Source: Malacoraja senta (taxonomy: Eukaryota). Taken from it: DNA of 64,000 bases. Positions 17,601-57,392 of the stretch are shown one piece after another; positions within the stretch are counted from its first letter, which is position 1; each line of letters opens with the position of its first letter. A model generated the notes under the pieces. The model made no database searches. It was not told the origin of the DNA and worked only from the letters and a program-made list of their open reading frames with translations. The DNA is taken from assembly GCA_038087875.1 (NCBI GenBank), contig CM075988.1, positions 19,346,001-19,410,000 of the forward strand. The letters run 5' to 3'. A program made the translations under genes and the position numbers.

Positions 17601-19583
17601 ACCATTCTAGACTACCATCAAAATGCCACAGCTTGCAACTACTAGAGTTAGATAGAGCTCTCGGGGCTAGTGGAATCAAGGGATATGAGCAGAAACCTCC
17701 TCCTGCACCCATTTTCTATGTTTCTATGTTTCCATGTTTCTTGCAAAGTCACCACCGTCTGACTAAAAAAACTCCCGCTCTTCTCCTTTTTAAAGGCAGG
17801 TCCTTTTATTCTTCTCTGTAGACCCTTCTCAACCCAAAACATCACCTATCCATGTTCTCTAAAGATGCTGCCTGAACTACTAAGTTTACATGCAAAATGT
17901 CTTTCCTACTATAGAAACAAAGAACTGCAGATGCTGGTCAATGCAAAGAACGGCGTCAAGTGCTGGAGTAACTCAGATGGTCACACAGCATCTCTGGAGA
18001 ACATAAGTTCATAAATTATAGGAGCAGAATTAGGCCATTCAAACTATTGTCTACTCTGCCATTCAATCATGGCTGATCTATCTTGCCCTCTCAACCCCCA
18101 TTTCCTGCCTTCTCCCCATAACCCCTGGCACCCGTACTAATCAAGAATCTATCAATCTCTGCCTTAAAAATATCCATTGTCTTCCGTGGCAATGAATTCC
18201 ATTGGTTCACCACCGTCTGACTAAAAAAACTCCCGCTCTTCTCCTTTTTAAAGGCAGGTCCTTTTATTCTTCTCTGGAGACCCTTCTCAACCCAAAACAT
18301 CACCTAGCCATGTTCTCTAAAGATGCTGCCTGAACTACTAAGTTACTCCAGCACTTGGTTCATTCTGTTCTAGTATACATGCCAGAATGTAAAAGGAGCA
18401 TTGAAGATAAAGGCCACTCCACACTGCATTTCTCTGGCATTGCCATTGTCAGTCCACTTGATGAGTCACCCATTGTCTCCGATGGTTTAATTGTACTATC
18501 TCAATGCTATACATTACCATAAAATCCATAGGTTAAAAGATATGTGCACACTCAATCACTGGACATATTCAGGATTGAAACCTATAGACCTTTGAACAGT
18601 TTGGTAATCATAAAACATTTGGATTGTATCGGAAAGTGTGCAGGACTTTTAAAAGGCATTGTACAGAAATATGGATAGGAAGGGTTTAGTGGGCGATGGG
18701 CCAAATGCAGGCAAATGGGACTAGCTCAATATGCCAATTTGGTCAGCATTGCAAGGTGAGCCAAAGGATTAGTTTTGGTTCTGTACAGCTCTATAGAAAC
18801 GTAGAAATATAGAAAGTAGGTACAGGAGTAGGCCATGCGGCCCTTCGAGCCAGCACCGCTATTCAACATGATCATGGCTGATCATCCAGAATCAGTACCC
18901 TGATCCTGTTTTTCCCCATATCATAGATACATAGATACATAGAAAATAGGTGCAGGAGTAGGCCATTTGGCACTTCGAGCCTGCACCGCCATTCAATATG
19001 ATCATGGCTGATCATCCAACTCAGTATCCCGTACCTGCCTTCTCTCCATAACCCCTGATCCCCTTAGCCACAAGGGCCACATCTAACTCCCTCTTAAATA
19101 TAGCCAATGAACTGGCCTCCACTACCCTCTGTGGCAGAGAGTTCCAGAGATTCACCACTCTCTGTGTGAAAACGTTTTTCCTCATCTCGGTCTTAAAGGA
19201 TTTCCCCCTTATCCTTAAGCTGTGACCCCTTGTCCTGGACTTCCCCAACATCGGGAACAATCTTCTTGCATCTAGCCTGTCCAACCCCATAAGAATTTTG
19301 CACGTTTCTATAAGATCCCCTCTCAATCTCCTAAATTCTAGCGAGTATAAGCCAAGTCTATCCAGTCTTTCTTCATATGAAAGTCCTGACATCCCAGGAA
19401 TCAGTCTGGTGAACCTTCTCTGCACTTCCTCTATGGCTATAATGTCCTTCCTCAGATTTGGAGACCAAAACTGTACGCAATACTCCAGATGTGGTCTCAC
19501 CAAGACCCTGTACAACTGCAGCAGAACCTCCCTGCTCCTATACTCAAATCCTTTTGCTATGAAAGCTAACATACCATTCGCTT

Positions 19584-19923
19584 GGTACACAAAAATGCTG
19601 GAGAAACTCAGCGGGTGCAGCAGCATCTATGGAGCGAAGGAAATAGGTAACGTATCGGGCCGAAACCCTTCTTCAGACTGATAGGGGGTGGGGAGAAGAA
19701 AGGAAAAAAGGAAAATGCGGAGGAGGAGCCCGAGGGCTGGGGGAGGGGAGGAGACAACCAGATGGCTGATGAAGGGGAGGGGAACGTTTCGGGCCGAAAC
19801 CCTTCTTCAGACTGATAGGGGGTGGGGAGAAGAAAGGAAAAAAGGAAAAGGCGGAGGAGGAGCCCGAGGGCTGGGGGAGGGGAGGAGACAACCAGATGGC
19901 TGATGAAGGGGAGGGGTTTACGT
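19584..19923 (-). mobile_element. Penelope-like terminal-repeat insertion with internal 134-bp tandem duplication
   Basis: 7-bp TSD TTCGCTT (19577-19583/19924-19930); empty site visible in sibling CR1 at ~33490; units 19649-19782 and 19783-19916. Confidence 0.85.
19783..19812 (-). ncRNA. Minimal type I hammerhead ribozyme-like motif (second of a tandem pair)
   Basis: Same core on the minus strand; partner copy at 19649-19678 has GATAC instead of GAAAC. Confidence 0.65.
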
Positions 19924-22479
19924 TTCGCTTTCTTCACTGCCTGCTGCACCTGCATGCCTACTTTCAATGACTGGTGTACCATGACACCCAGGTCTCGCTG
20001 CATCTCCCCATTTCCTAATCGGCCACCATTTAGATAATAATCTGCTTTCCTGTTTTTGCCACCAAAGTGGATAACCTCACATTTATCCACATTATACTGC
20101 ATCTGCCAAACATTTGCCCACTCACCCAGCCTATCCAAGTCACCTTGCAGTCTCCTAGCATCCTCCTCACAGCTAACACTGCCCCCCAGCTTAGTGTCAT
20201 CTGCAAACTTGGAGATGTTGTCTTCAATTCCCTCATCCAGTTCATTAATATAAATTGTAAATAGCTGGGGTCCCAGCACTGAGCCTTGCGGTACCCCACT
20301 AGTCACTGCCTGCCATTGTGAAAAGGACCCGTTTACTCCTACTCTTTGCTTCCTGTTTGCCAGCCAGTTCTCTATCCACATCAATACTGAACCCCCAATA
20401 CCGTGTGCTTTAAGTTTGTATACTAATCTCTTATGTGGTACCTTGTCAAAAGCCTTCTGAAAGTTCAGATACAACACATCCACTGGTTCTCCCCTATCCA
20501 CTCTACTAGTTACATCCTCGAACAATTCTATAAGATTCGTCAGACATGATTTACCTTTCGTAAATCCATGCTGACTTTGTCCAATGATTTCACCACTTTC
20601 CAAATGTGCTGCTATCCCATCTTTAATAAGTGACTCTAGCAGTTTCCCCACTACCGATGTTAGACTAACTGGTCTGTAATTCCCCGTTTTCTCCCTCCCT
20701 TCTTAAAAAGTGGGGTTACGTTTGCTACCCTCCAATCCTCAGGAACTACTCCAGAATCTAAAGAGTTTTGAAAAATTATCACTAATGCATCCACTATTTC
20801 TGGAGCTACTTCCTTAAGTACTCTGGGATGCAGCCTATCTGGCCCTGGTGATTTATCGGCCTTTAATCCATTCAATTTACCCAACACCACTTCCCGACTA
20901 ACCTGGATTTCACTCAGTTCCTCCATCTCCTTTGACCCGCGGCCCCCTGCTATTTCCGGCAGATTATTTATGTCTTCCTCAGTGAAGACGGAACCAAAGT
21001 AGTTATTCAATTGGTCCGCCATAACCTTGTTCCCCATGATCAATTCAACCGTTTCTGACTGCAAGGGACCTACATTTGTTTTAACTAATCTCTTTCTCTT
21101 CACATATCTATAAAAACTTTTGCAGTCAGTTTTTATGTTCCCTGCCAGTTTCCTTTCATAATCTATTTTCCCTTTCCTAATTAAGCCCTTTGTCCTCCTT
21201 TGCTGGTCTCTGAATTTCTCCCAGTCCTCTGGTATGCTGCTTTTTCTGGCTAATTTGTACGCATCATCTTTTGCTTTGATACTATCCCTGATTTCCCTTG
21301 TTATCCATGGATGCACTACCTTCCCTGATTTATTCTTTTGCCAAACTGGGATGAACAATTTTTGTAGTTCATCCATGCAGTCTTTAAATGCCTTCCATTG
21401 CATATCCACCGTCAACCCTTTTAGAACTAATTGCCAGTCAATTTTGGCCAATTCACGTCTCATATCCTCAAAGTTACCTTTCTTTAAGTTCAGAACCGTT
21501 GTTTCTGAATTAACAATGTCACTCTCCATCCTAATGAAGAACTCAACCATATTATGGTCACTCTTGCCCAAGGGGGCACGCACAACAAGACTGCTAACTA
21601 ACCCTTCCTCATTACTCAATACCCAGTCTAGAATAGCCTGCTGTCTCGTTTGTTCCTCTACATGTTGGTTTAGATAACTATCCCGCATACATTCCAAGAA
21701 ATCCTCTTCCTCAGCACCCCTGCCAATTTGATTCACCCAATCTATATGTAGATTGAAGTCACCCATTATAACTGTTTTGCCTTTATTGCACGCATTTCTA
21801 ATTTCCTGTTTGATGCCATCCCCAACTTCACTACTACTGCTAGGTGGCCTGTACACAACACCCACCAGCGTTTTCTGCCCCTTAGTGTTTCGCAGCTCTA
21901 CCCATACCGATTCCACATCCTCCAAGCTAATGTCCTTCCTTTCCACTGCGTTAATCTCCTCTCTAACCAGCAACGCTACCCCACCTCCTTTTCCTTTCTC
22001 TCTATCCCTCCTGAATATTGAATATCCCTGGATGTTCAGCTCCCAGCCTTGGTCACCCTGGAGCCATGTCTCCGTGATCCCAACTATATCATAATCATTA
22101 ATTGCTATCTGCACGTTCAACTCATCCACCTTATTACGAATGCTCCTTGCATTGAGACACAAAGCCTTCAGGCTTGTTTTTACAACGCCCTTACCCCTTA
22201 TACAATTATGTTGAAAAGTGGCCCTTTTTGATTTTTGCCCTGGATTTGTCTGCCTGCCACATTTACTTTTCACCTTGCTACCTATTGCTTCCGCCCGCAT
22301 TTTACACCCCTCTGTTTCTCTGCTCACCCATTTAAGAACCCCACCACCTCTTATTCTCTGTTTATTATTGTTTTCTTCTTTCCCCCCTACATGTTGGGTC
22401 TGAGTGCTTTCCTTCTCTGCCTCCTGCCTCACACACTGTCTAATAACATTCTCTATTTGAGTCCCTCCCCCCAACCATT

Positions 22480-31722: not shown

Positions 31723-32841
31723 AAACCGGAGCACCCGGCCAGGTCATAGAATCATAGAAACATAGAAAGTAGGTGCAGGAGTAGGCCATTTGGCCCTTCG
31801 AGCCAGCACCGCCATTCAATATGATCATGGCTGATCATCCAGAATCAGTGCCTTGTACATGCTTTTTCTCCATATCCCTTGATTCCGTTAGCCCGGAGAG
31901 CTGTATATCTAACTCTTTCTTGAATACATCAAAGTCTGTGGCGCTGTGTGGCAGCAGCTCTACCAGCCGCGCCACTGTGCCGCCCTGTGGTGACCTCCTA
32001 CCACTCGTTTATCTTAATGCTTTCAATAAATAAAATTCTGCTGGAATCGGCAGCAAGCAAGTGCCTGCTTGTCCAGTCTCCCAGTATTCAGTCCCACTGC
32101 AGCCAGTGGCATTAAATATTGGCTGCTGTGTGTATAATGAACAACCACGGTGAATTTTTCTTCCTAAAGTTTAATGAGATGGTTCAAGTGGGATTGAATA
32201 TTTGCACAAGGCCTCCTGAAACAAACCTGTGCTACACTAATAAAATAATTCTACGCGGCCAATTCTATCAGTTTGTTAATATATTATTAATAAATCTTCA
32301 TTGATATTGTGCATTCAAAGCAGACTTATTATGCTTGAATGAGATCACGATAGCTAAGAGGTTGAACATAGATCTCAATCTCGTGAAACACTGCAAGTAT
32401 TGCTTTTGCAATCACATCGAAAGCTCACCAACAACTCTGCTTCCATAGGAGATTGAGAAGATTCAAGAGGCATGGATGGATATGGATCGCAGTTGGGCAA
32501 GTGAGAATAGTTTAACTTGACTTCATGTTGGGTACAGACACTGTGGGTTGAATGGCGACCTCCTGTGCTGTACTATTCTATGTTCTATGATTCAGTATGT
32601 TGACGAATATTCGATCGAACATCCACAGGTACATGGGTAGAGAACATACTGACTGGTTGCTCAAACTCGAATGCTCAGCAACGAAGGAGACTTCAAAGAG
32701 CAATGGACGCTGCCCACTCCATCACATATACTGACCTCTCCACCATTGAATGGATATACAGGAGATGCTGCCTCAAAAAGGCAGCCAATATCATCAAAGA
32801 CCCACACCACCCTGGCCACGCTCTCATCTCACTACTATCAT

Positions 32842-33651
32842 AGATACATAGATACATAGAAAATAGGTGCAGGAGTAGGCCATTCGGCCCTTCGAGCCTG
32901 CACCGCCATTCAATATGATCATGGCTGATCATCCAACTCAGTATCCCGTACCTGCCTTCTCTCCATACCCCCTGATCCCTTTAGCCACAAGGGCCACATC
33001 TAACTCCCTCTTAAATATAGCCAATGAACTGGCCTCAACTACCCTCTGTGGCAGAGAGTTCCAGAGATTCACCACTCTCTGTGTGAAAACGTTTTTTCTC
33101 ATCTCGGTCTTAAAGGATTTCCCTTATCCTTAAGCTGTGACCCCTTGTCCTGGACTTCCCCAACATCGGGAACAATCTTCCTGCATCTAGCCTGTCCAAC
33201 CCCATAAGAATTTTGTAAGTTTCTATAAGATCCCCTCTCAATCTCCTAAATTCTAGCGAGTACAAGCCGAGTCTATCCAGTCTTTCTTCATATGAAAGTC
33301 CTGACATCCCAGGAATCAGTCTGGTGAACCTTCTCTGCACTCGCTCTATGGCTATAATGTCCTTCCTCAGATTTGGAGACCAAAACTGTACGCAATACTC
33401 CAGGTGTGGTCTCACCAAGACCCTGTACAACTGCAGTAGAACCTCCCTGCTCCTATACTCAAATCCTTTTGCTATGAAAGCTAACATACCATTCGCTTTC
33501 TTCACTGCCTGCTGCACCTGCATGCCTACTTTCAATGACTGGTGTACCATGACACCCAGGTCTCGCTGCATCTCCCCATTTCCTAATCGGCCACCATTTA
33601 GATAATAGTCTGCTTTCCTGTTTTTGCCACCAAAGTGGATAACCTCACATT
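32842..33651 (-). mobile_element. CR1 3' fragment, same young subfamily as 18923-22642
   Basis: Near-identical to 18923-20095 without the insert; (TATCTATG)n tail; TATCAT at both junctions (32836-32841/33652-33657); splits a Rex1-like fragment. Confidence 0.93.
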
Positions 33652-34889
33652 TATCATCGGCAAGAAGGTACAGGAGCCTGAAAACCGTGACCTCCAGTTT
33701 CAAGAACAGCTTCTTCCCAGTGTCTATCAGGCTCGAACACTGCACAACACTAACTTTAGCAACTATGATCTTCTATGATCTATGTCTTCAGATGCATTAT
33801 GAGCTTTATTAGTACACCATTATGGTTACCTATATTATGGTTGTTAATTTATTGTATTACTGATTATTATATATTTATATGTGTGTTATGCATAGACAGA
33901 GCTATTACGTTGCAGCAAGTAAGAATTTTGTTATTTAGTTGTCGCTACTTATGTCGACTAAACACTCTTAACTCTTGAGTTGACTTTTGCTGATGTTTGG
34001 CTAAAGATGTGAGCATCGCTGTTTCAGGCAATGTTTTTTACAACATCGGCCATCTGATGAACTTGGTCTGGAAAATCTCGGGGAAACAACTAGGGTTTTG
34101 CATTGTCTTCGAAGAGAACAAGTCACACTGGCAGAGATGAAGAACTCGCTGGGAGCTGTTGGCAATCGACAACTCGTCCAGATGGCTATGAAGCCAAACA
34201 ATTAACCTAAGTGCCTCAACACAACTCATTCCGATGCCAAGCAATCAGGAATTGCAAGGCAACTTTGAAGTTCTGCAGTGAAGAATTTTGGCCAGTCCAA
34301 TTAGACAGAGAATTCTCGGCCCAGAACTGTGATTTCCTTTTTGATGACCAGTTTATATATTCATAACCCAAACTTCATTTGTAAAAGGTTAAGAATACTT
34401 TTTCATTTTTGTTCCAGGAACAATTCTCGATAGAGCTTTGCTAATATTTGGTGGCCTTTGAGGTGTGCTCCAGCTTTGCTGCAGATTCCACACAAATTAT
34501 ACACTTGATAAAACTTGATGAGTGATAGTTTAGCTGCTGTCATTGTGAATTTTACAAGGTTAATATGGCCACGTTCTGTTATTCTAACAACCTCTTAGCT
34601 CGCTGCATGTATCTTGTTTTCAAGCATGAACACTGCCAGGCTGTAACCTATCCAATGGATACTTTTGTAAGTATGCTTGAGGACTAAACATGGCCAATTT
34701 AGCTGGCCACAACTCTGCTCTACCAACAGAGAAAGCTGAAAACACACAGCAGGTTAGGCAGCATCTGTGGTATGACAAACAGTAATATTTCAGAACATCT
34801 CTCCACAGAAATAGGCACAGGTCCACATTTAGGGTACCACATTGCAATTGTACAAAGCAATTATCAGGCTGCACTCAGACGATTGTGTA

Positions 34890-45162: not shown

Positions 45163-46375
45163 CTAGACCAAGTGCAGACCCATTGGGTCTGTTTCCCCAA
45201 TGCGCGTTTGCTGGGGGGGGGGGGGGGGCAGCGGCGTCACACTAACCACCGTCGGGTCTGTACCTCCAAAGCACGGTTGCGGGGTGGGAATCTGGCACCC
45301 ACAAACACACACACTCATCACAACCCTTGATATTATCTTAATTTTATTAATTGGCGTCTTTTATCCCATCTCCACCCTATCCACTGACGAATAGCCCTCA
45401 CCTCTCCGGTGTGTCTAGAGGGGGGCAGAGAGAGTGTGCACAGACAGAGTTGGAAGAGAGAGAGAGAGAGAGAGAGAGGGCAGAGAAAAAGATAAAGATC
45501 AAAGAGAGAGAGCAGAGATAGGGGTAGGGGGTAGAGTGGGAAGAATGTGGATGGAGGTGGAAGAGTGGGGAGGGGGAGGGGGAGGGGGTGGGAAGTGGGT
45601 GGGGGAGGAAAGGGGGGTGGGGGGATGGGGGTGGGGGAGAGAGGGAAGGGGGTGGGGGAGGGAAGGGGGGAGAGGGAAGGGGGTGGGGGAGAGAGGGATG
45701 GGGGTGGGAGGAGGAGGGGAGGAGAGGAGAGGGTGAGGAGAGGGAGATGGAGAGGGGGAGGAGAGAGGGATGGGGAGGGGGATGGGGAGAGAGGAGTGGG
45801 GGGAGGGGGGGGGATGGGGGAGGGATGGGAGGAGGGAGATGGGGTAGGGGAGGGAGGGGGAAGAGTGTGGAGGGAGGGGGAGAGGGGTGGGGGGAGAGAG
45901 GGAAATAGTGGGGAGGGAGAGTGGAAGGGGGAGGGGTAGGGACAGTCCATCTGTTCCCCATTCCCTATCACCCCCAATCCTCTTTCTCTATTCCAACACA
46001 TGTGATGACGCGCTTCGACACAGGCTGCGCGGGTTGGGGGGAGGGGCTGGGCTTGGGCTGGGGCTGCTGCAAAAGCATATGTAAATGGATCCATTCTGAT
46101 TGGACATATGTGAGCATTTGGCATTGTGACATCACACGATGGAACGTTCACCAACATTCTATTGGTGAGAGCTTTTTTTTTGTAACATTTTGAAATTTTG
46201 GGGGGGGGAGAAAGATTTTATTAAAAATGTGTACATAAACACGACGAAATTTAATCAGGAGTGGCTACTTGGAATGAAAAGTGAAATCTCTACCGAAATG
46301 GAAAAAATCTCGGCGTTTCTGCGTGTGGTGTTGGCATAGCGACAAATCAAAGGCTGGCAGCCACAAGACAGGCAG

Positions 46376-46408
<33 letters not shown>

Positions 46409-46420
46409 TTTAAAGATAGA
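45163..46420 (-). mobile_element. Non-autonomous Helitron, unit 1 of a tandem array
   Basis: Minus strand begins TC (46420) and ends CTAG (45163-45166) followed by T; palindrome CAGACCC-ATT-GGGTCTG at 45175-45191 close to the 3' end; internal G-rich and (CA)n tracts. Confidence 0.85.
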
Positions 46421-47683
46421 CTAGCCCCAAGTGCAGACCCGTTGGGTCTGTCTCTCCAACGCGCGTTTGCCGGGGGGGGGGGGCTGCGGCGTTCCTCCAA
46501 AGCACGGTTGCGGGGTTGGAATCTTGCACCCACAAACACGCACACTCATCACACCCCTTGATATTATCTTAATTTTATTAATTGCTTCTTTTATCCCATC
46601 TCCACCCTATTCACTGACGAATAGCCCTCACCTCTCAGGTGCATCTAGAGGGGGGGGGAGCAGAGAGAGTGTGCACAGACAGAGTGGAAGGGAGAGAGAG
46701 AGAGGGCAGAGAAAAAGATAATGATCAAAGAGAGAGAGAGCAGAGAGATAGCAGATGACAGGCGCTGCAAGTGGAAAAGTGTTTTATTAAATCATAAAAT
46801 GTAAATAACTTAAAATACAACAATTTAAATGGTAAAGATAAAATGTATTCAGTTTATGTTCATTTTGTTTTGTCTCTTGCTCCATGTTTTGTGTTCTTTC
46901 TCGTTTATCCTCGACATATTCAGTTATTACTTCTTGGGTCTCTCCTCTTTCTCGCTCCACACTCTTCCCCCTCCCTCCACACTCTTCCCCCTCCCTCCCC
47001 TACACCATCTCCCTAATCTCCTCCCTCCCCCCTCCCCCACACCTCTCTCCCCTCCCCCATCCAAGGGGTGGGGGGAGAGAAGGGAGGGAAGGGGAAGGGA
47101 GGGGGAGCGAGAGAGGGGTGGAATAAGGGGGAGAGAAGTGGAACAGTGGGGAGGGAGGGGTAGGGGGAGTGGTGGATGAAGGACAGAGGGGTAGGTGGAA
47201 GGGGGCGGGGGAGAGTGGGAAGGGGGACTGGGGGAGAGAGGGATGGGGAGGGGGAGAGAGGTGTGAGGGAGGGGGGAGGGATGGGGAGGGAGGGGATTAG
47301 GGAGATGGGGTAGGGGAGGGAGGGGGAAGAATGTGGAGGGAGGGGAAGAGTGTGGAGGGAAAAGGGGGGTGGGGGAGAGAGGGGATGGGGGTGGGAGGAG
47401 GAGCGGAGGGGAGGGAGAGGGGTGAGGAGAGGGAGATGGAGAGGGGGAGGAGAGAGGGGTGGGGGATGGGAGGACAGAGGGGTGGGGGAGGGGAGAGAGG
47501 TATGGGGTAGGGGGTGTGGGGGTGGGATGGGGGAGTGAGGAGAAGAGGGAGATGGGGTAGGGGGAGGGAGGAAGAAGAGTGTGGAGGGAGGGGAGAGGGG
47601 GTGGGGGGAGAGAGTGGGAAAGAGTGGGGAGGGAGAGTGCGAGAGTGGGGGGAGGGGGGAGAGGGGGGGGAGGGGAGGGGGGG
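46421..47683 (-). mobile_element. Non-autonomous Helitron, unit 2 (runs into assembly gap)
   Basis: CTAG 46421-46424, hairpin CAGACCC-GTT-GGGTCTG 46434-46450; 46421-46750 closely repeats 45163-45520. Confidence 0.8.
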
Positions 47684-47883
47684 NNNNNNNNNNNNNNNNN
47701 NNNNNNNNNNNNNNNNNNNNNNNNNNNNNNNNNNNNNNNNNNNNNNNNNNNNNNNNNNNNNNNNNNNNNNNNNNNNNNNNNNNNNNNNNNNNNNNNNNNN
47801 NNNNNNNNNNNNNNNNNNNNNNNNNNNNNNNNNNNNNNNNNNNNNNNNNNNNNNNNNNNNNNNNNNNNNNNNNNNNNNNNNNN
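47684..47883. other. Assembly gap (200 N)
   Basis: Run of N adjoining a G-rich low-complexity tract. Confidence 1.
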
Positions 47884-49639
47884 TACTCCACCATTAAATC
47901 CCTCCTCATCTCCTTTCTGAAGGTACTTTGTAATAAAGGAACTGCAATTTTAGCTAAACCCAATTTCGTTCATTCCCACAAGTCTTGAAAATTATCATCG
48001 TAAATCACCTCACTATTAGATTTGTAAAGATGTAAGTGGATGTCCAGATTGAGGTAAATTTGTACCAGCTGGGGCTCCACTGGAAACAGTCCCATCCCCA
48101 GGTTAGACAGCTATGGATTCAAGACCTGATCCAGTAATCCAAGCAGCAAACCATCACAGAGTAGTTCTGATCAAATGCTGCACTCTCAGAGGTGCTGCCT
48201 TTTGCATGAAATATTAAACTGAGGTCTGTTCTTTCCAGCAGATGTAAGCACCCATGCTGGTGAACAGGAGTGTTATCTCAATGTACTGGGCAAGATCTGC
48301 CTCCACCACTACTCCCTGGGTGAGAAGCACAAAACTTAAAGGAAATGTGCAGGGCGGGGCAGGTTTCTTACCCAGAGAGTGGTGGGGGCCTGAAGTGCGC
48401 TGCCAGGGGTGGTGGCGGACGCAGATACAGTAGAGGAGTTTAACAGACTTTCAGACAGGGACATGGACATGCAGGAAATCGAGGGCTGTGGATCATGTGC
48501 TGGCAGAGGAGATTAGTTTATCTTGGAATCGTGTTCGGCACAGACATGGTGGGCTGAAGTTCCTGTGTTGCGCTTTCTTACCTACCATGTTCTATTTATT
48601 TCCAATGAAAATTCATAAAAAACTGATTAGCTTAGAAATCATTTCCATTTGTTGCAACATTCCATGCAGTTACAAGCAGCTTTGCTGGGGGTAGATGACG
48701 TTCGAGATCTTAGGACGACTGGGGTGGAGGAGTGGTCATACCAGTTCCAATGTTTGCATCCTGGTATCCCTTTCGTTAGCACATCTTCACCAACCAACAA
48801 TGGGCCATTATGGACTCCACCCTTCCTGAGGTCACCTGTTGCCGACCCTGATTTGTTCTGGTCTTCTATCGCAACCAGTCACCCCCCACATCTCTATCTT
48901 TCAGTCTGAAGAAGAGTTCCAACCCGAAACGTCACCTATTCTTTGTCACAGAAGGCTGTGGAGGCCAAGTCAATGGATATTTTTAAGGCAGAGATAGATA
49001 CTGTAGATTCTTGATTAGTACGGATGTCAGAGGTTATGAGGAGAAGGCAGGAGAATGGGGTAGGAGGGAGAGATAGATCAGCCATGATTCAATGTCGGAG
49101 TAGACTTGATGGGCCAAATGGTGTAATTTTACTTCGGAGTCACGTGAGTGACTACGTGAAGAACCCCGTCAGGGCGCATGCGCGTCATTTACGTCTGACG
49201 CATTGGCGACAACGGCAGCTCGAGCTCGGAGCTCCTGCTGCAACGTGAGTAAATACAGCTCCACCAAAGTCGGGGAGACTTTGGAGGAGTTAGAAAAAAG
49301 TAAATAAATTGTTTCTGTGTGTCTTTTCCCCACATACAGGAACAAGGAAAAGGTGCAGGCTGCTGCCGACAAGGAGAGAGAGAGCTGCGGGATGCAGTCT
49401 CTGAAAGGCAGCCTGTCACCTCGGGGGAGTCGCAAGCCGGTAGCGGTGCGGCGACAGACTTGGCAAAGTGCCCAGCCGGGTACACAGCCAACGCCAGTCG
49501 GGCGGTCGGCATAAGTTAAGTCTGTCAGGGCTATAGACTCCGCAGAGTCGGGCCACGAGAGTCCCGTCGGGGACAGGATACCGTTCCCCAGCAGTTATCC
49601 AAAAGGAGCAGCTCATACAGGGGCTGCTCCACAGAGACG

Positions 49640-49880
49640 CTCCAGGAGGAGTTGTGTGGGCGGGAAGCCATAGGTAAGGCTCCGCTGGCAGTGCCTAGGA
49701 GAGGTCTGTCTCATAAAGCCACAATTCCAGGAGGAGTAGTGCAGGCGGGAAGCCTTAGGGAAGGCTCCGCTGGCAGTGCCTAGGAGAGGTCTGCTTCATA
49801 AAGCCATACTCCAGGAGGAGTTGTGCAGGCGGGAGACCGTGTGGACGGCTCCGCTGGCAGTGCCTAGTAGAGGCCTGCTT
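49640..49880 (+). repeat. ~84-bp tandem repeat x3 in the DIRS gag region
   Basis: TCCAGGAGGAGT recurs at 49641, 49726, 49810, each followed by GGCTCCGCTGGCAGTGCCTAG. Confidence 0.9.
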
Positions 49881-50600
49881 GAAAGCACCCTCTTTGCAAG
49901 AGGTGAGTGCAGAAGGGCAGATACGCTCTGACCCTGAGTCCGACGACTTCCAAAGGGAGGGCAGGCAGCTGTCAGAGCTGACACCGTGTGCAGCACGTTT
50001 TGCCATGTCGTCGGATGCTGGTGAGCCTCTGGGTGAGGAACTTGCCACCAGCATAAATTACCAAGTCTCACATCAGCTACAGGAGCTGACAATGGATGAG
50101 ACAGTAACGAAGTATGAAGCCCCAATCAACTGTGGACTGTTCAAAGTTCCTGTTGGGAACAGGAAGAATTGGGGTAAGATGGGCATACTAATGAAAGCCC
50201 AGGAGCATGTGAAGCTCCAGCATATTTTTAAAGTTGCTGGCATCTAGTATAACGAGCTTTGCCAGGATGGTGGATGGAGAGGGCATGACAAATTACAACA
50301 AAAGGCGCTATTGTGGAGTGCCCACTTTGAGATCAATTGCCTCCGCAAGATGCGATTAGACCAACCATCAATGCTAAATATGCTTCACTCTGCCAGCCTG
50401 GCACAGTGCAACTGGCACAGCTGTTTGGCGAGGATTTCGCACAGCAGGTGAAGGAGCTGGAGGAGGAGGCTAAGACGGCAGCCACATATTCACCAAAGCG
50501 GAAGTATCCCTATAAGGGAGCAGACTGGTCCGGGCAAGGGACGAGTCCAGCTACGATGCAGCGCAGTTGGCGTTCGGCTATAGCACCGCCACGGAGGTGA
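49879..50600 (+). pseudogene. DIRS gag-like ORF remnant
   Basis: IRPTINAKYASLC...LFGEDFAQQVKEL resembles DIRS gag C-terminus; position upstream of RT; frameshifted. Confidence 0.7.
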
Positions 50601-50772
50601 GATATCCAGCTCAAGGCCGGGGAAGAATGCCAGGTGGTAAGGAGGTAAGAGGGTCTGGTTCTCATGTAGACAGATCTAATGTGATACAATTAAATGTTTA
50701 CCTCAGATATGTTTATACTGAAGGTTATTCAAGGGCATCGAATAAAGCTTAAATGCAAATTCTGATTTACCC

Positions 50773-52030
50773 ATGCAACATGTTCCAAAAAAGGAGTTTG
50801 ACTTCAGTATCACTGAACAATTGGAAGTTCAGCTGGAACTTGCAAGCTTATGTAATAAAGGTGTAATTGCTAAGGCAGTTTACCAAAGCCATCAGTTTGT
50901 GTCCAATATCTTTCTCAGACCAAAAAAGGATGGGGGGATGCAGAATTATACAGACCTGAATAGGCTTAACCCTTTTGTACGGTATAGACATTTTAAGATG
51001 GAAACGTTTGTGAAGGAGATCTTAAAGATGCGGATTCAGTGTCTGTTCATTTGCAGGATAGATTTAAAATTCAGCTGGATGGGGAATTATGCCAATACAA
51101 TCCACTGCCTAATGGTTTGTCTTCAGCTCCTAGAGGGATTACAAAGTTTTTAAAACCTATTCTAGGCATGATGAGAAGTCAAGGTCATGTGCTCATGGCT
51201 TAGCTAGTTAATATCTTGATTATAGGACAATCAAAGGAAACAGCTGAAGCATCAGTGGCAGTTGGTAAAAACCAATTTTTAATTGGGCTTTATAAGCTAT
51301 TCTGAGGAATTTAAATTTATACCTGTGACACAAATTGACTAGTTGGGTTCACAATGGACTTAATCAACATCATTGTGACCTTGCCCAGGCGAAAAAGGGT
51401 AGAGCTAATTAAGAGCTATATCAAGTTAATTGCTAACACACAGCCTTCAATTAGCCAGGTGACAAGACTGCTGTGGTAATGGCTGGCAGCATTTCCAGCA
51501 GTTCAATATGGCCACTTTATTATCTACAATTACAAAGGTCAAAGGAACAAGCATTGAGGATACATTGGGGTCATTATAATAGACCTATGCTTCTATCAAT
51601 AGAGGCTGTTGCTGATGTACAATGGTGGATTCAGCATGTGTCCACTAGTAGTTCCAAAGTGTTATTGGACCAAGCTTCCATGATTTCCAGACAGATGTCA
51701 GAGCACTTGGGTAGGGTGCTACTGATACAAGATCCAGCGATAGAGACAGATGAACATTGCTTCTGCATACATGGGGAATTAACCAAGAGTACTTTATGGA
51801 CTCAAGGCTTATGGCACTAACTAAACTAGTTGCATGTGCAGTGCAAAATAGACAACACTGCAGCAGTTGCTGATATGAATCACATGGGTGGAATCAAATC
51901 GTTATCATGTGACAGGTTGGCAAATACAATTGGACCTGGAGTAGGGATAGAGAGATTTGGATTGGAGCTATCTATCTGCCAGGGAAACTTAATGTAGTAC
52001 CAGATGGCAGCTCACGAAAATTCCATCATA
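50773..52030 (+). pseudogene. DIRS reverse transcriptase / RNase H remnant
   Basis: FVSNIFLRPKKDGG, DLNRLNPFV..HFKMET, DLKDA (shifted frame); YLDD position reads *LVN at 51201-51212; RNase H KIDNTAAVADMNHMGG and YLPGKLNVVPD. Confidence 0.9.
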
Positions 52031-52037
52031 ACACAGA

Positions 52038-52370
52038 GTGGATGTGGAACCAGGATGTGTTCAAGAACATAGTACTTCTATATGGAAGGCACCAGATCCA
52101 GGGGCAGTGGCAATTGATGCTTTTTCACTAAATTGGGATGATATGTTTGTGTACATTTTCCCACCATTCTGCCTCATAGGTCGGTGTTTGAGAAAATCAA
52201 GCAGGATGCCGCTTCAGGGGTTTTGGTGATACCAAATTGCCTGATTCAACCATGGTTCCCTTTGATGTTACAGATAGCGATCCAACCTCTTTTTGCTGAT
52301 TCCAAACAGTAGGAATTTGCTGGAGCATCCAGTAACGCATTAAGTTCATCCGTTATGTGACGGTACGGAT
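52038..52370 (+). pseudogene. DIRS Dam-like methyltransferase domain remnant
   Basis: AIDAFSLNW..VYIFPPFCLIGRCLRK and downstream QPWFP. Confidence 0.8.
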
Positions 52371-52394
52371 CTGTTAGTTTGCAGGTTTCAAGAA

Positions 52395-53369
52395 TGCCTT
52401 ACATTGGTCGAGGACTTTCTAGGCCAACGGTGTATATACTCGCTGCAGTCTGGAGAAAGAGTACTCAAAAACAGTATATGATTTATGAAAAAAAAAAAAA
52501 AAAAAAGGAACAATATTGTGTTCAAAAGAATATTCAATATGATACTGTAGTTATTGAAAATGTGTTAGAGTTTATCTACACTTTATTATGATGAAGGTCT
52601 TAGCTATACTGCTATCAATACAGCTAGAAGTGCTTTGTCGGCATATCTTGTAATAGGTACACGGACACAAAGTATAGGTTCTCACCCTCTCATATCTAGG
52701 TTGATGAAAGGAATCTAATTCCAAACCGCCTAAGCCTAGGTATATGGTAATCTGCGAGGTAAGCGTTGTTCGTAACATACTTCGTCATTGGGTCCCTGTC
52801 ACGGCTATAACGTTGTTAAAATTAACCATGAAATTGGCTATGCTAATGGCATTGGTGTCAGTACAGAGAACTTTCCAAAAAACTTCAGTTCGAGAGAATG
52901 GAAGTGAATACAGAGAATGTTCTGTTTTATATTTCTGACCTGCTCAAACAAAGCAGGCCAGGTGTGACAGGTTTTAAGATTGTGTTCTCAGCATATCCTA
53001 CAGCTCCATGTTTATGTGTAAGGACACATTTGTTACATTACATTGAAGCCACAAGGGCTTTAAGACAAGAAGAAACAGGATTATTTGTCAGTTACAAAAA
53101 GCCAACATAAAAGAGTGGCAGTTCAGACTATCTCAAGGTGGTTAAAGCAAGAGTTGGTTCAGGCAGGAATTAACATTTATGTGTTTACATCTCATTCCAC
53201 TAGCGCAGTAGCAACATCCGCGGCCAGGGCGATGGACGTTCCCATCGACCATATATTAAAAGCCGCAGGTTGGAAAAATGAACTTGTGTTTCAGCAATTC
53301 TACCATCGGCCGATTGCCGATGGAGGGCTGTTTGCCAACTCAATATTGAGTGCTGTTGCTATTGTTTAA
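52395..53369 (+). pseudogene. DIRS tyrosine recombinase remnant
   Basis: LKQSRPG, LFVSYKKP, QTISRWLK..L..AGI...FTSHSTS (HxxR degenerate), ILKAAGW...FQQFY; several frameshifts and an A-run at ~52488-52506. Confidence 0.92.
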
Positions 53370-53578
53370 AGTCTGTTTTCAATACTGTTTCATTCTGTTT
53401 CGTTTGTTGCCCTACATTAAGAGGGTTTATTGGTTGTTTTATGACCAAAAATAAAACTGTTTTGTTTTTGCATGATATGCAATGTCAGGTTTACAGCATT
53501 ATTGATGATACTCAGTCAATCGATGCAGTGAGAAGCCGGGATTTTGATCTGCGGCATAAAAATCACAGAGCTTTAAAA

Positions 53579-53690
53579 TCTTCACGTAGTCACTCACGTG
53601 ACTCCGAAGTAAAATAGTAAGATTAAACGAGAACTTACCAGTTTGAAGTTTGATCTTTATTTTATGAGGAGTTACGTTGGTGATTACGTG
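53579..53690. repeat. DIRS internal complementary region (ICR)
   Basis: 53579-53615 is the exact reverse complement of 49126-49162; 53614-53690 is the exact reverse complement of 53842-53918. Confidence 0.95.
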
Positions 53691-54145
53691 CCCGCCACGC
53701 CCAACCCTCTCTCATAGAATAAAGGTCATAATGGTAGTTCTCATGTTGATCATCTTAATATGTTACTTCAATTATGGTGTTGTCTGTGATTTCATACCGC
53801 TGCTTTGAAGATTGACGCGCATGCGCCCTGACGGGGTTCTTCACGTAATCACCAACGTAACTCCTCATAAAATAAAGATCAAACTTCAAACTGGTAAGTT
53901 CTCGTTTAATCTTACTATTCTTGATTAGTACGGATGTCAGAGGTTATGAGGAGAAGGCAGGAGAATGGGGTTAGGAGGGAGAGATAGATCAGCCATGATT
54001 CAATGGCGGAGTAGACTTGATGGGCCAAATGGTCTAATTCTACTCCTATTCCTTATGACCAATTTCCTTTCTCCAGAGATGCTGCCTGACCCACTGAGTT
54101 ACTCCAACATTTTGTGTCTATCTATGATTCTAACGCCTGACCCCA

Positions 54146-56974: not shown

Positions 56975-57392
56975 GTGGTTTCAGGCAGACCAAACAACTA
57001 ATTTCATTTCATTCCCATTTCCATTGCAGTTTCAAGCACATGGCTGGTCAACCAATTCATTGCATTTTCATTTCATTTCCATTTCCATTGCAGTTTCAAG
57101 CACAGGGCAGGCCAAACAACTCATTGCATTTTCATTTAATTTCCATTTCCATTGCAGTTTCAAGCACAGGGCAAGTCAAACAACTCATTGCATTTTCATT
57201 TAATTTCCATTTCCATTGCAGTTTCAAGCACAGGGCAGACCCAACAACTCATTGCATTTTCATTTCATTTCCATTTCCATTGCAGTTTCAAGCACAGGGC
57301 AGGCCAAACAACTCATTGCATTTTCATTTCATTTCCATTTCCATTGCAGTTTCAAGCACAGGGCAGGCCAAATAACTCATTGCATTTTCATT
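56975..57392. repeat. 64-bp minisatellite, ~6.5 copies
   Basis: CAGGGCAGGCCAAACAACTCATTGCATTTTCATTTCATTTCCATTTCCATTGCAGTTTCAAGCA starting at 57103, 57167, 57231, 57295, 57359 with more diverged copies upstream. Confidence 0.95.

Follow-up and report, generated by a model that had tools for sequence, protein, structure and literature searches.

A DIRS1-type retrotransposon bracketed by a 122-nt duplication of host CR1 sequence in Malacoraja senta

We analysed a 64,000-nucleotide stretch of the Malacoraja senta genome (GenBank assembly GCA_038087875.1, contig CM075988.1, positions 19,346,001 to 19,410,000 of the forward strand), hereafter the window, which holds a full-length tyrosine-recombinase retrotransposon of the DIRS1 type standing between two copies of a segment of host DNA. 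The 122-nt segment 49007-49128 is present again as 123 nt at 53917-54039, and the two align over 123 columns at 97.6% identity, with two substitutions and one 1-nt insertion or deletion (indel), three differences in total. The element begins (49126) and ends (53917) with ATT, and both flank junctions fall exactly at ATT, the last three bases of the left copy being the element's left ATT and the first three of the right copy its right ATT. The first-pass annotation had described a duplication of about 122 bp, with three differences and with ATT common to both termini, bracketing the element; this was borne out by the alignment and by the element ends as defined from its internal complementary region (ICR). 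The structure is established in the assembly sequence only. It is atypical for a DIRS1-type element and is tied to the insertion, and the flank duplication looks like a single accident.

The duplicated segment consists of the end of CR1 open reading frame (ORF) 2 and its 3′ untranslated region (UTR). In translation the segment agrees with the ORF2 ends of longer copies, located at 19140, 31504 and 33057, which we take to be CR1. The next-best CR1 tail copies within the window are only 82-89% alike to the segment, compared with 97.6% between its two copies, so the match is not CR1 family background. In general, the window's repeats resemble those of cartilaginous fishes. All three differences fall in the left copy, a clustering that is not significant (P=0.25).

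For comparison, four of 24 listed runs (X21, X22, X23 and X3) were examined, all of them consisting of short contigs that break at the repeats and three being swamped by repeats. The run tables used here list 15 of 1,626 joints, 24 of 4,178 loose ends and 40 of 223 differences. None of the listed joints or loose ends is at an element terminus and none of the listed contigs spans a junction, which carries no weight either way on the junctions, an empty allele or targeting. The residual depth of letters private to the window was rejected as proof that X21 contains this copy, since rare variants are lost from contigs.

The two copies go back to a single CR1 insertion at a single locus. The insertion is 5′-truncated at 48938, and in the run contigs the family sequence extends upstream of that point. 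It splits an older short repeat, the joined form of which (joints from 48935-48944 to 54068-54071) is the commonest among the listed joints. The two copies also have minority variants in common, the letter in the window making up 17.7%, 11.5% and 3.5% of X21 depth at 49024, 49039 and 54001, respectively. Because they share rare variants and both lie inside one split older repeat, the copies come from one locus; recombination between two distant CR1 copies was rejected on the same two grounds. The features of the locus are collected in Table 1.

Table 1. Positions in the window of the DIRS1-type element, the duplicated segment and the surrounding host features
Feature	Position	Strand	Remarks
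DIRS1-type tyrosine-recombinase retrotransposon, full length	49126..53919	+	4,794 nt; termini set by ICR
Left inverted terminal repeat	49126..49187	+	88.7% to 53813-53873 inverted
Right inverted terminal repeat (53813-53873) and right extension to 53919	53813..53919	+	
ICR, circle-junction copy	53579..53690	-	3-nt overlap at 53613-53615
pol remnant (reverse transcriptase, RNase H and methyltransferase region by position)	50770..52290	+	Three frames; tblastn
Tyrosine recombinase remnant	52527..53369	+	Split over three frames; PF00589 and tblastn
Left copy of duplicated segment	49007..49128	+	End of CR1 ORF2 plus 3′ UTR; all three derived differences
Right copy of duplicated segment	53917..54039	+	Family state at all three differing positions
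5′ part of 5′-truncated CR1 insertion, outside duplication	48938..49006	+	Translates like ORF2 end of longer copies
3′ end of same CR1 insertion, outside duplication	54040..54060	+	
Older short repeat split by CR1 insertion, first half	48904..48941	+	
Older short repeat, second half	54063..54123	+	
Private 5-nt insertion (register ambiguous in span)	48999..49005	+	Candidate repair scar, 1-3 nt before duplication start
Site 2, intact form; candidate priming microhomology	54037..54046	+	8/10 to element's first ten bases

The anatomy of the element was then compared with that of its class. The reverse complement of the ICR equals the left end 49126-49162 (37/37) and the right end 53842-53919 (78/78), and the two parts overlap on AAT. 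The coding regions are broken by stops and frameshifts. In tblastn, pol ORFs from related elements matched the pol remnant at E 1e-30 to 1e-36, and among them the L004 query itself carries Pfam RVT_1 (E 4e-23); a direct Pfam search of the window for reverse transcriptase gave no match. The recombinase remnant was likewise matched with ORFs of related elements (tblastn, E 3e-19) and is 40-49% identical to five PF00589 proteins, while direct Pfam support is weak, the PF00589 match (E 0.0036-0.011) lying below the curated cut-off. For gag, the broken frames upstream of pol at 49126-50700 gave no meaningful Pfam match and no tblastn match. No second copy of the element occurs elsewhere in the window. 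Within the gag region, three tandem copies of 84-85 nt (49640-49890) are 77-91% alike and are covered in other family contigs too, and a run of about 21 A (52487-52507) lies where the recombinase region starts.

PMC3266345 describes DIRS1-like elements as beginning and ending with NTT, mostly ATT, and lists inverted terminal repeats, a right extension, a split ICR and ATT ends as features of the class. The element in the window has the same layout, as described in PMC3266345 and PMC7192593 and as found in the related loci L003, L004, L006, L034 and L043: inverted terminal repeats with a right extension, an ICR whose parts overlap on the 3-nt junction, ATT ends, and pol followed by a tyrosine recombinase. 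The identification as a DIRS element proposed at first pass is thus upheld by its terminal repeats, ICR, ATT ends and pol and recombinase remnants. It departs from the class in one respect. DIRS1-like integration is described as yielding no target-site duplication (TSD) (PMC3266345), that is, none beyond the shared trinucleotide, whereas here 122 nt are duplicated and the flanks are not contiguous target. This departure is a property of the present insertion event, not one shown for the family, and the element is an ordinary decayed DIRS1-like copy whose anatomy is otherwise standard.

As a comparison set, we used 50 metagenome loci with related recombinases, all of which were scanned for ICRs. 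Both flanks are present in four of them (L004, L006, L034 and L043), and none of the four shares more than ATT between its flanks; the left end of L043 was checked by eye, and the result of no duplication holds. These four belong to other families (40-47% recombinase identity to the query), and their short collapsed-repeat flanks may mix copies. From the same set, 11 loci with an ATT junction and a right flank were picked by hand, excluding loci with no flank or a 2-nt flank and those with hairpins not at element ends. A perfect 1,155-nt tandem duplication, possibly an assembly artefact, was seen inside one related DIRS element (L019:4084-6393). Exact scans for the element's right terminus returned no match in the viral, metagenome and prokaryote collections, and a recombinase alignment search of viral contigs gave no confirmed locus.

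We next examined the two break points of the target, site 1 at 49007 and site 2, intact in the right copy. Both had been thought to resemble the circle junction weakly. This held for site 2, which matches the junction at 5/7 positions in the arm after ATT, but not for site 1, where 2/7 in each arm is background. Outside the element, 51 of the 2,433 ATT sites (2.1%) score as well as site 2. On the plus strand, nothing else within about 500 nt of site 1 in either direction matches the element's left end as well as site 2 does, and elsewhere matches of the 8/10 type occur at 0.59 per kb; the statistical weight of the resemblance is modest. The normal right flanks of the 11 picked relatives, compared with their own left termini, match at 0-4 of 7 positions (mean 2.2), and none of the 11 reaches at least 5/7, so resemblance to the left terminus is not the usual target rule in these relatives. 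The 8/10 match at site 2 therefore reads better as repair microhomology than as target choice. Aberrant strand exchange at two pseudo-attachment (pseudo-att) sites, one of the explanations offered at first pass, is not supported by these figures: only one site resembles the junction, none of the 11 related flanks reaches 5/7, and for site 1 the idea was rejected on its background score. Separately, the left termini of L004, L006, L023, L034 and L049, which belong to several distant DIRS families, begin with ten bases that agree at 9/10 positions with the form of site 2 common among CR1 copies, probably by chance.

Site 1 shares only ATT with the element end and has a private 5-nt insertion beside it. 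This insertion is absent from both window CR1 copies that cover the site (2/2). Among the listed loose ends (24 of 4,178), the consensus for the one at 49000, seen in three runs with 158, 120 and 196 contigs, lacks it too. A templated origin from the element interior, where a 10-nt match lies at 52541, was considered and not accepted (chance 0.06-0.16 by three nulls).

Among the causes considered, these junction details are best fitted by one-ended integration with primed repair, and with moderate confidence we propose that the locus arose in a single aberrant event, in which the DIRS1-type element was integrated by one end into a CR1 tail and repair synthesis primed on microhomology completed the insertion. 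The minus-strand 5′ end of the element folds onto the ICR in a perfect 78-bp stem that leaves the left terminus as a 3′ end. The donor would be such a folded minus-strand complementary DNA (cDNA), its 5′ end being the right terminus and its free 3′ end the left one. The recombinase would attach the right end to the site 1 ATT, giving a normal-looking junction, while the left end would stay unjoined and its 3′ end would anneal at site 2, 119 nt downstream, on the 8/10 microhomology. Synthesis primed there would run back across 119 nt of target to produce the left copy, and sealing at site 1 would leave the 5-nt scar. On this view, host repair produced the duplication when the element inserted or close to that time, and the duplication would have no function. 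We infer every one of these steps from a single locus.

Two bodies of published work make the scheme concrete. In Dictyostelium, DIRS-1 cDNA is described as mostly linear and as single-stranded, and the circle junction resisted amplification; the strand that accumulates is antisense and lacks its left end until this is completed on the ICR as the last step (PMC7192593). For human immunodeficiency virus (HIV) and avian sarcoma and leukosis virus (ASLV), one-ended integration finished by primed host synthesis is reported to give long duplications (PMC5041404). As in HIV-1/ASLV, one end here would be joined enzymatically and the other 3′ end would prime on short homology, and one normal end (site 1, ATT only) and one short homology (site 2, 8/10) are found. 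In HIV-1/ASLV the enzyme is a DDE integrase acting on linear double-stranded DNA, whereas here it would be a tyrosine recombinase with an ICR-folded or circular donor; there the scheme is demonstrated experimentally, here it is proposed for a DIRS insertion (PMC5041404).

Long flanking duplications of this kind have a further counterpart in human endogenous retrovirus K (HERV-K), in which 6 of 451 TSD estimates are 61-450 bp (PMC5488345). Those HERV-K (HML-2) sites are likewise germline insertions of a rare kind, whose long flanking duplications have diverged slightly, and pseudo-TSDs arising by rearrangement, the same rivals as here, are discussed for them; pre-integration alleles were determined for two of the sites (PMC5488345). 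Short imperfect microhomology, a small junction insertion and a local duplication are the marks of microhomology-mediated or templated-insertion repair of the polymerase theta type. The DIRS junction may be likened to that repair, an enzyme not being assignable from one junction.

Several points weigh against the one-ended scheme. There is one event only, and the data examined contain no empty allele, junction-spanning record or flanked sister copy. Which end the recombinase joined is itself inferred, and a mirror-image version is also possible. In the standard model the donor is a closed double-stranded circle (PMC3266345, PMC7192593), and joining by one end only is less easily imagined for such a molecule. 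The letters ATTCT stand at each break point (chance 0.07), which is also in keeping with slippage models, and the 5-nt scar lies in a GATA-repeat context prone to indels. The remaining points concern age. At the rate given by seven X23 contigs, which show 45 differences from the element over 3,624 positions (1.24%), the 150 nt of the element's own paired repeats should hold 3.7 differences, and none is seen (P=0.024). The comparison of 3/122 in the flanks with 0/150 in the paired repeats (P=0.089) leans slightly towards flank copies older than the insertion. In addition, the left part of the element looks more diverged than the right (26/1,579 vs 7/1,069, P=0.03, the split having been chosen after seeing the data), as would be expected of a chimera.

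The age figures nonetheless allow a single event. The rate of 1.24% predicts 3.0 differences between the flank copies and three are observed, so the flank divergence fits the element's own age and there is no need to invoke two alleles. The flank and paired-repeat counts are both accounted for by a rate near 0.55-0.65%, and heterogeneity over all seven X23 contigs is not significant (P=0.33). A chimera is also compatible with these data.

Such a chimera is what would result if elements of the same family had inserted twice, once at site 2 and, on a different allele or chromatid, once at site 1, and had then recombined inside the element, possibly helped by homing of a new cDNA to an existing copy; the flank copies would then be alleles. 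This course of events, which the first-pass annotation had put forward, is possible, but the three flank differences, accounted for by the age of the element, do not need it, and we regard both the recombination and the chimeric element that it implies as unlikely. It draws on the left-right contrast and the paired-repeat comparison above, on the great depth of the family in runs X21 and X22 and on reports that DIRS elements favour existing copies (PMC5633606, PMC5941688). Against this, it needs two insertions 119 nt apart plus a crossover, the heterogeneity along the element is not significant overall, the left inverted terminal repeat is still an exact match to the ICR and the right repeat, and the 5-nt insertion and the 8/10 match are left unexplained. 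Less probable again is a normal insertion followed by a separate repair at the junction, in which a template switch or local templated insertion copied 122 nt from the other flank or from the empty homologue. ATTCT at both sites would suit it, and the window holds two examples of such events. A 138-nt direct repeat (17749-17886 and 18207-18344, two mismatches, 320 nt apart) has no DIRS nearby; a minus-strand CR1 tail crosses the 18207 boundary, which makes the right copy the original, and the left copy looks like a local templated insertion. A tandem duplication of period 134 at 19646-19927 (98% matches), again with no DIRS nearby, lies within a short repeat, which in turn breaks up a young CR1 copy (18919-20087) that is 97-99% alike to 32836-33655. 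Two local duplications of 134-138 nt without DIRS in the same 64 kb indicate that repair in this genome makes products of this size, a point that counts for the one-ended scheme as well. Yet a separate repair event requires a later break, unconnected with the insertion, that happened to lie only a few bases from the element end and left both termini exact.

The window also offers some grounds for suspecting the assembly itself, since a gap of 200 N (47684-47883) lies 1.24 kb from the element start and neither junction is spanned by any listed record. There is, however, only a slim chance that haplotypes or paralogous CR1 junctions were merged into a chimera: X21 contigs match the left flank 48497-48920 with no differences and no gaps, the right flank shares the minority variants of the locus and completes the split older repeat, and a 4.8-kb high-copy repeat with private changes of its own was assembled through. 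An earlier tandem duplication of 119-nt period, into whose junction ATT the element then inserted normally, is very improbable. The ATTCT microhomology at both ends would suit slippage, and a young tandem duplication of similar size exists in the window; the element would nevertheless have to strike about one junction ATT among 2,433 ATT sites in the window (4e-4 at best), a figure to be set against 1.3% long duplications in HERV-K, which is a borrowed rate. We attach just as little probability to a family trait, by which this DIRS family would routinely make long duplications or target CR1 tails, the latter having also been raised at first pass. No positive evidence speaks for it, and the absence of more than the 3-nt ATT in all four distant relatives with both flanks speaks weakly against it, these being of other families and their flanks possibly chimeric. 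CR1 tails are dense (the 64 kb contain six further close copies besides numerous distant ones), so that insertion into one needs no targeting, and the intact ICR and 3-nt junction indicate the ordinary pathway.

In the open-licence PMC and bioRxiv literature, we found no report of a long duplication beside a DIRS element. A single locus shows only that a DIRS insertion can come with one. The DIRS integration route is still deduced indirectly, the circle junction not having been amplified and the detectable cDNA being mostly linear and single-stranded (PMC7192593), and aberrant junctions are what exposed one-ended integration in retroviruses. It is conceivable, though we consider it rather doubtful, that the locus is a frozen intermediate showing that DIRS can integrate from linear, ICR-folded minus-strand cDNA with the right (5′) end joined and the left (3′) end primed. 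If so, such events would form a countable minority class of fixed polarity in a very high-copy vertebrate family, with the microhomology always to the left terminus, the scar at the upstream break point and the new copy on the left, and the question of a circular versus a linear donor would become testable from genomes alone. Further cases in the family with the same polarity would be direct evidence on the form of the donor; if none are found, the locus would simply add to the many repair scars of this genome. Its value thus lies in how the frequency and polarity of such junctions in an abundant family bear on a circular versus a folded linear donor.

With regard to abundance, the depth of the element body in X21 is 4,700-19,000 times that of the flank, a rough figure not to be read as copy number. 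The family is without representation at 91% likeness in organism A and seems, by the rough X21 depth, unusually abundant in organism F, a difference suggesting a lineage-specific burst. In X21 and X22 the depth of the interval 53394-53805, the 3′ non-coding and ICR part, exceeds that of the element body by a factor of 2-6, and in X3 it reaches 0.76-2.5 million while most bins of the body are below 400. This excess may reflect a very abundant DIRS derivative that is non-autonomous, or a diverged family whose ends are conserved.

Elsewhere in the window, a long purine-rich tract of low complexity (45455-47883) ends in the gap mentioned above, which is of exactly 200 N; gaps of 200 N are typical of Hi-C-scaffolded long-read assemblies. 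Downstream of the element, six copies of a 64-nt tandem unit (94% matches) occupy 57002-57392.

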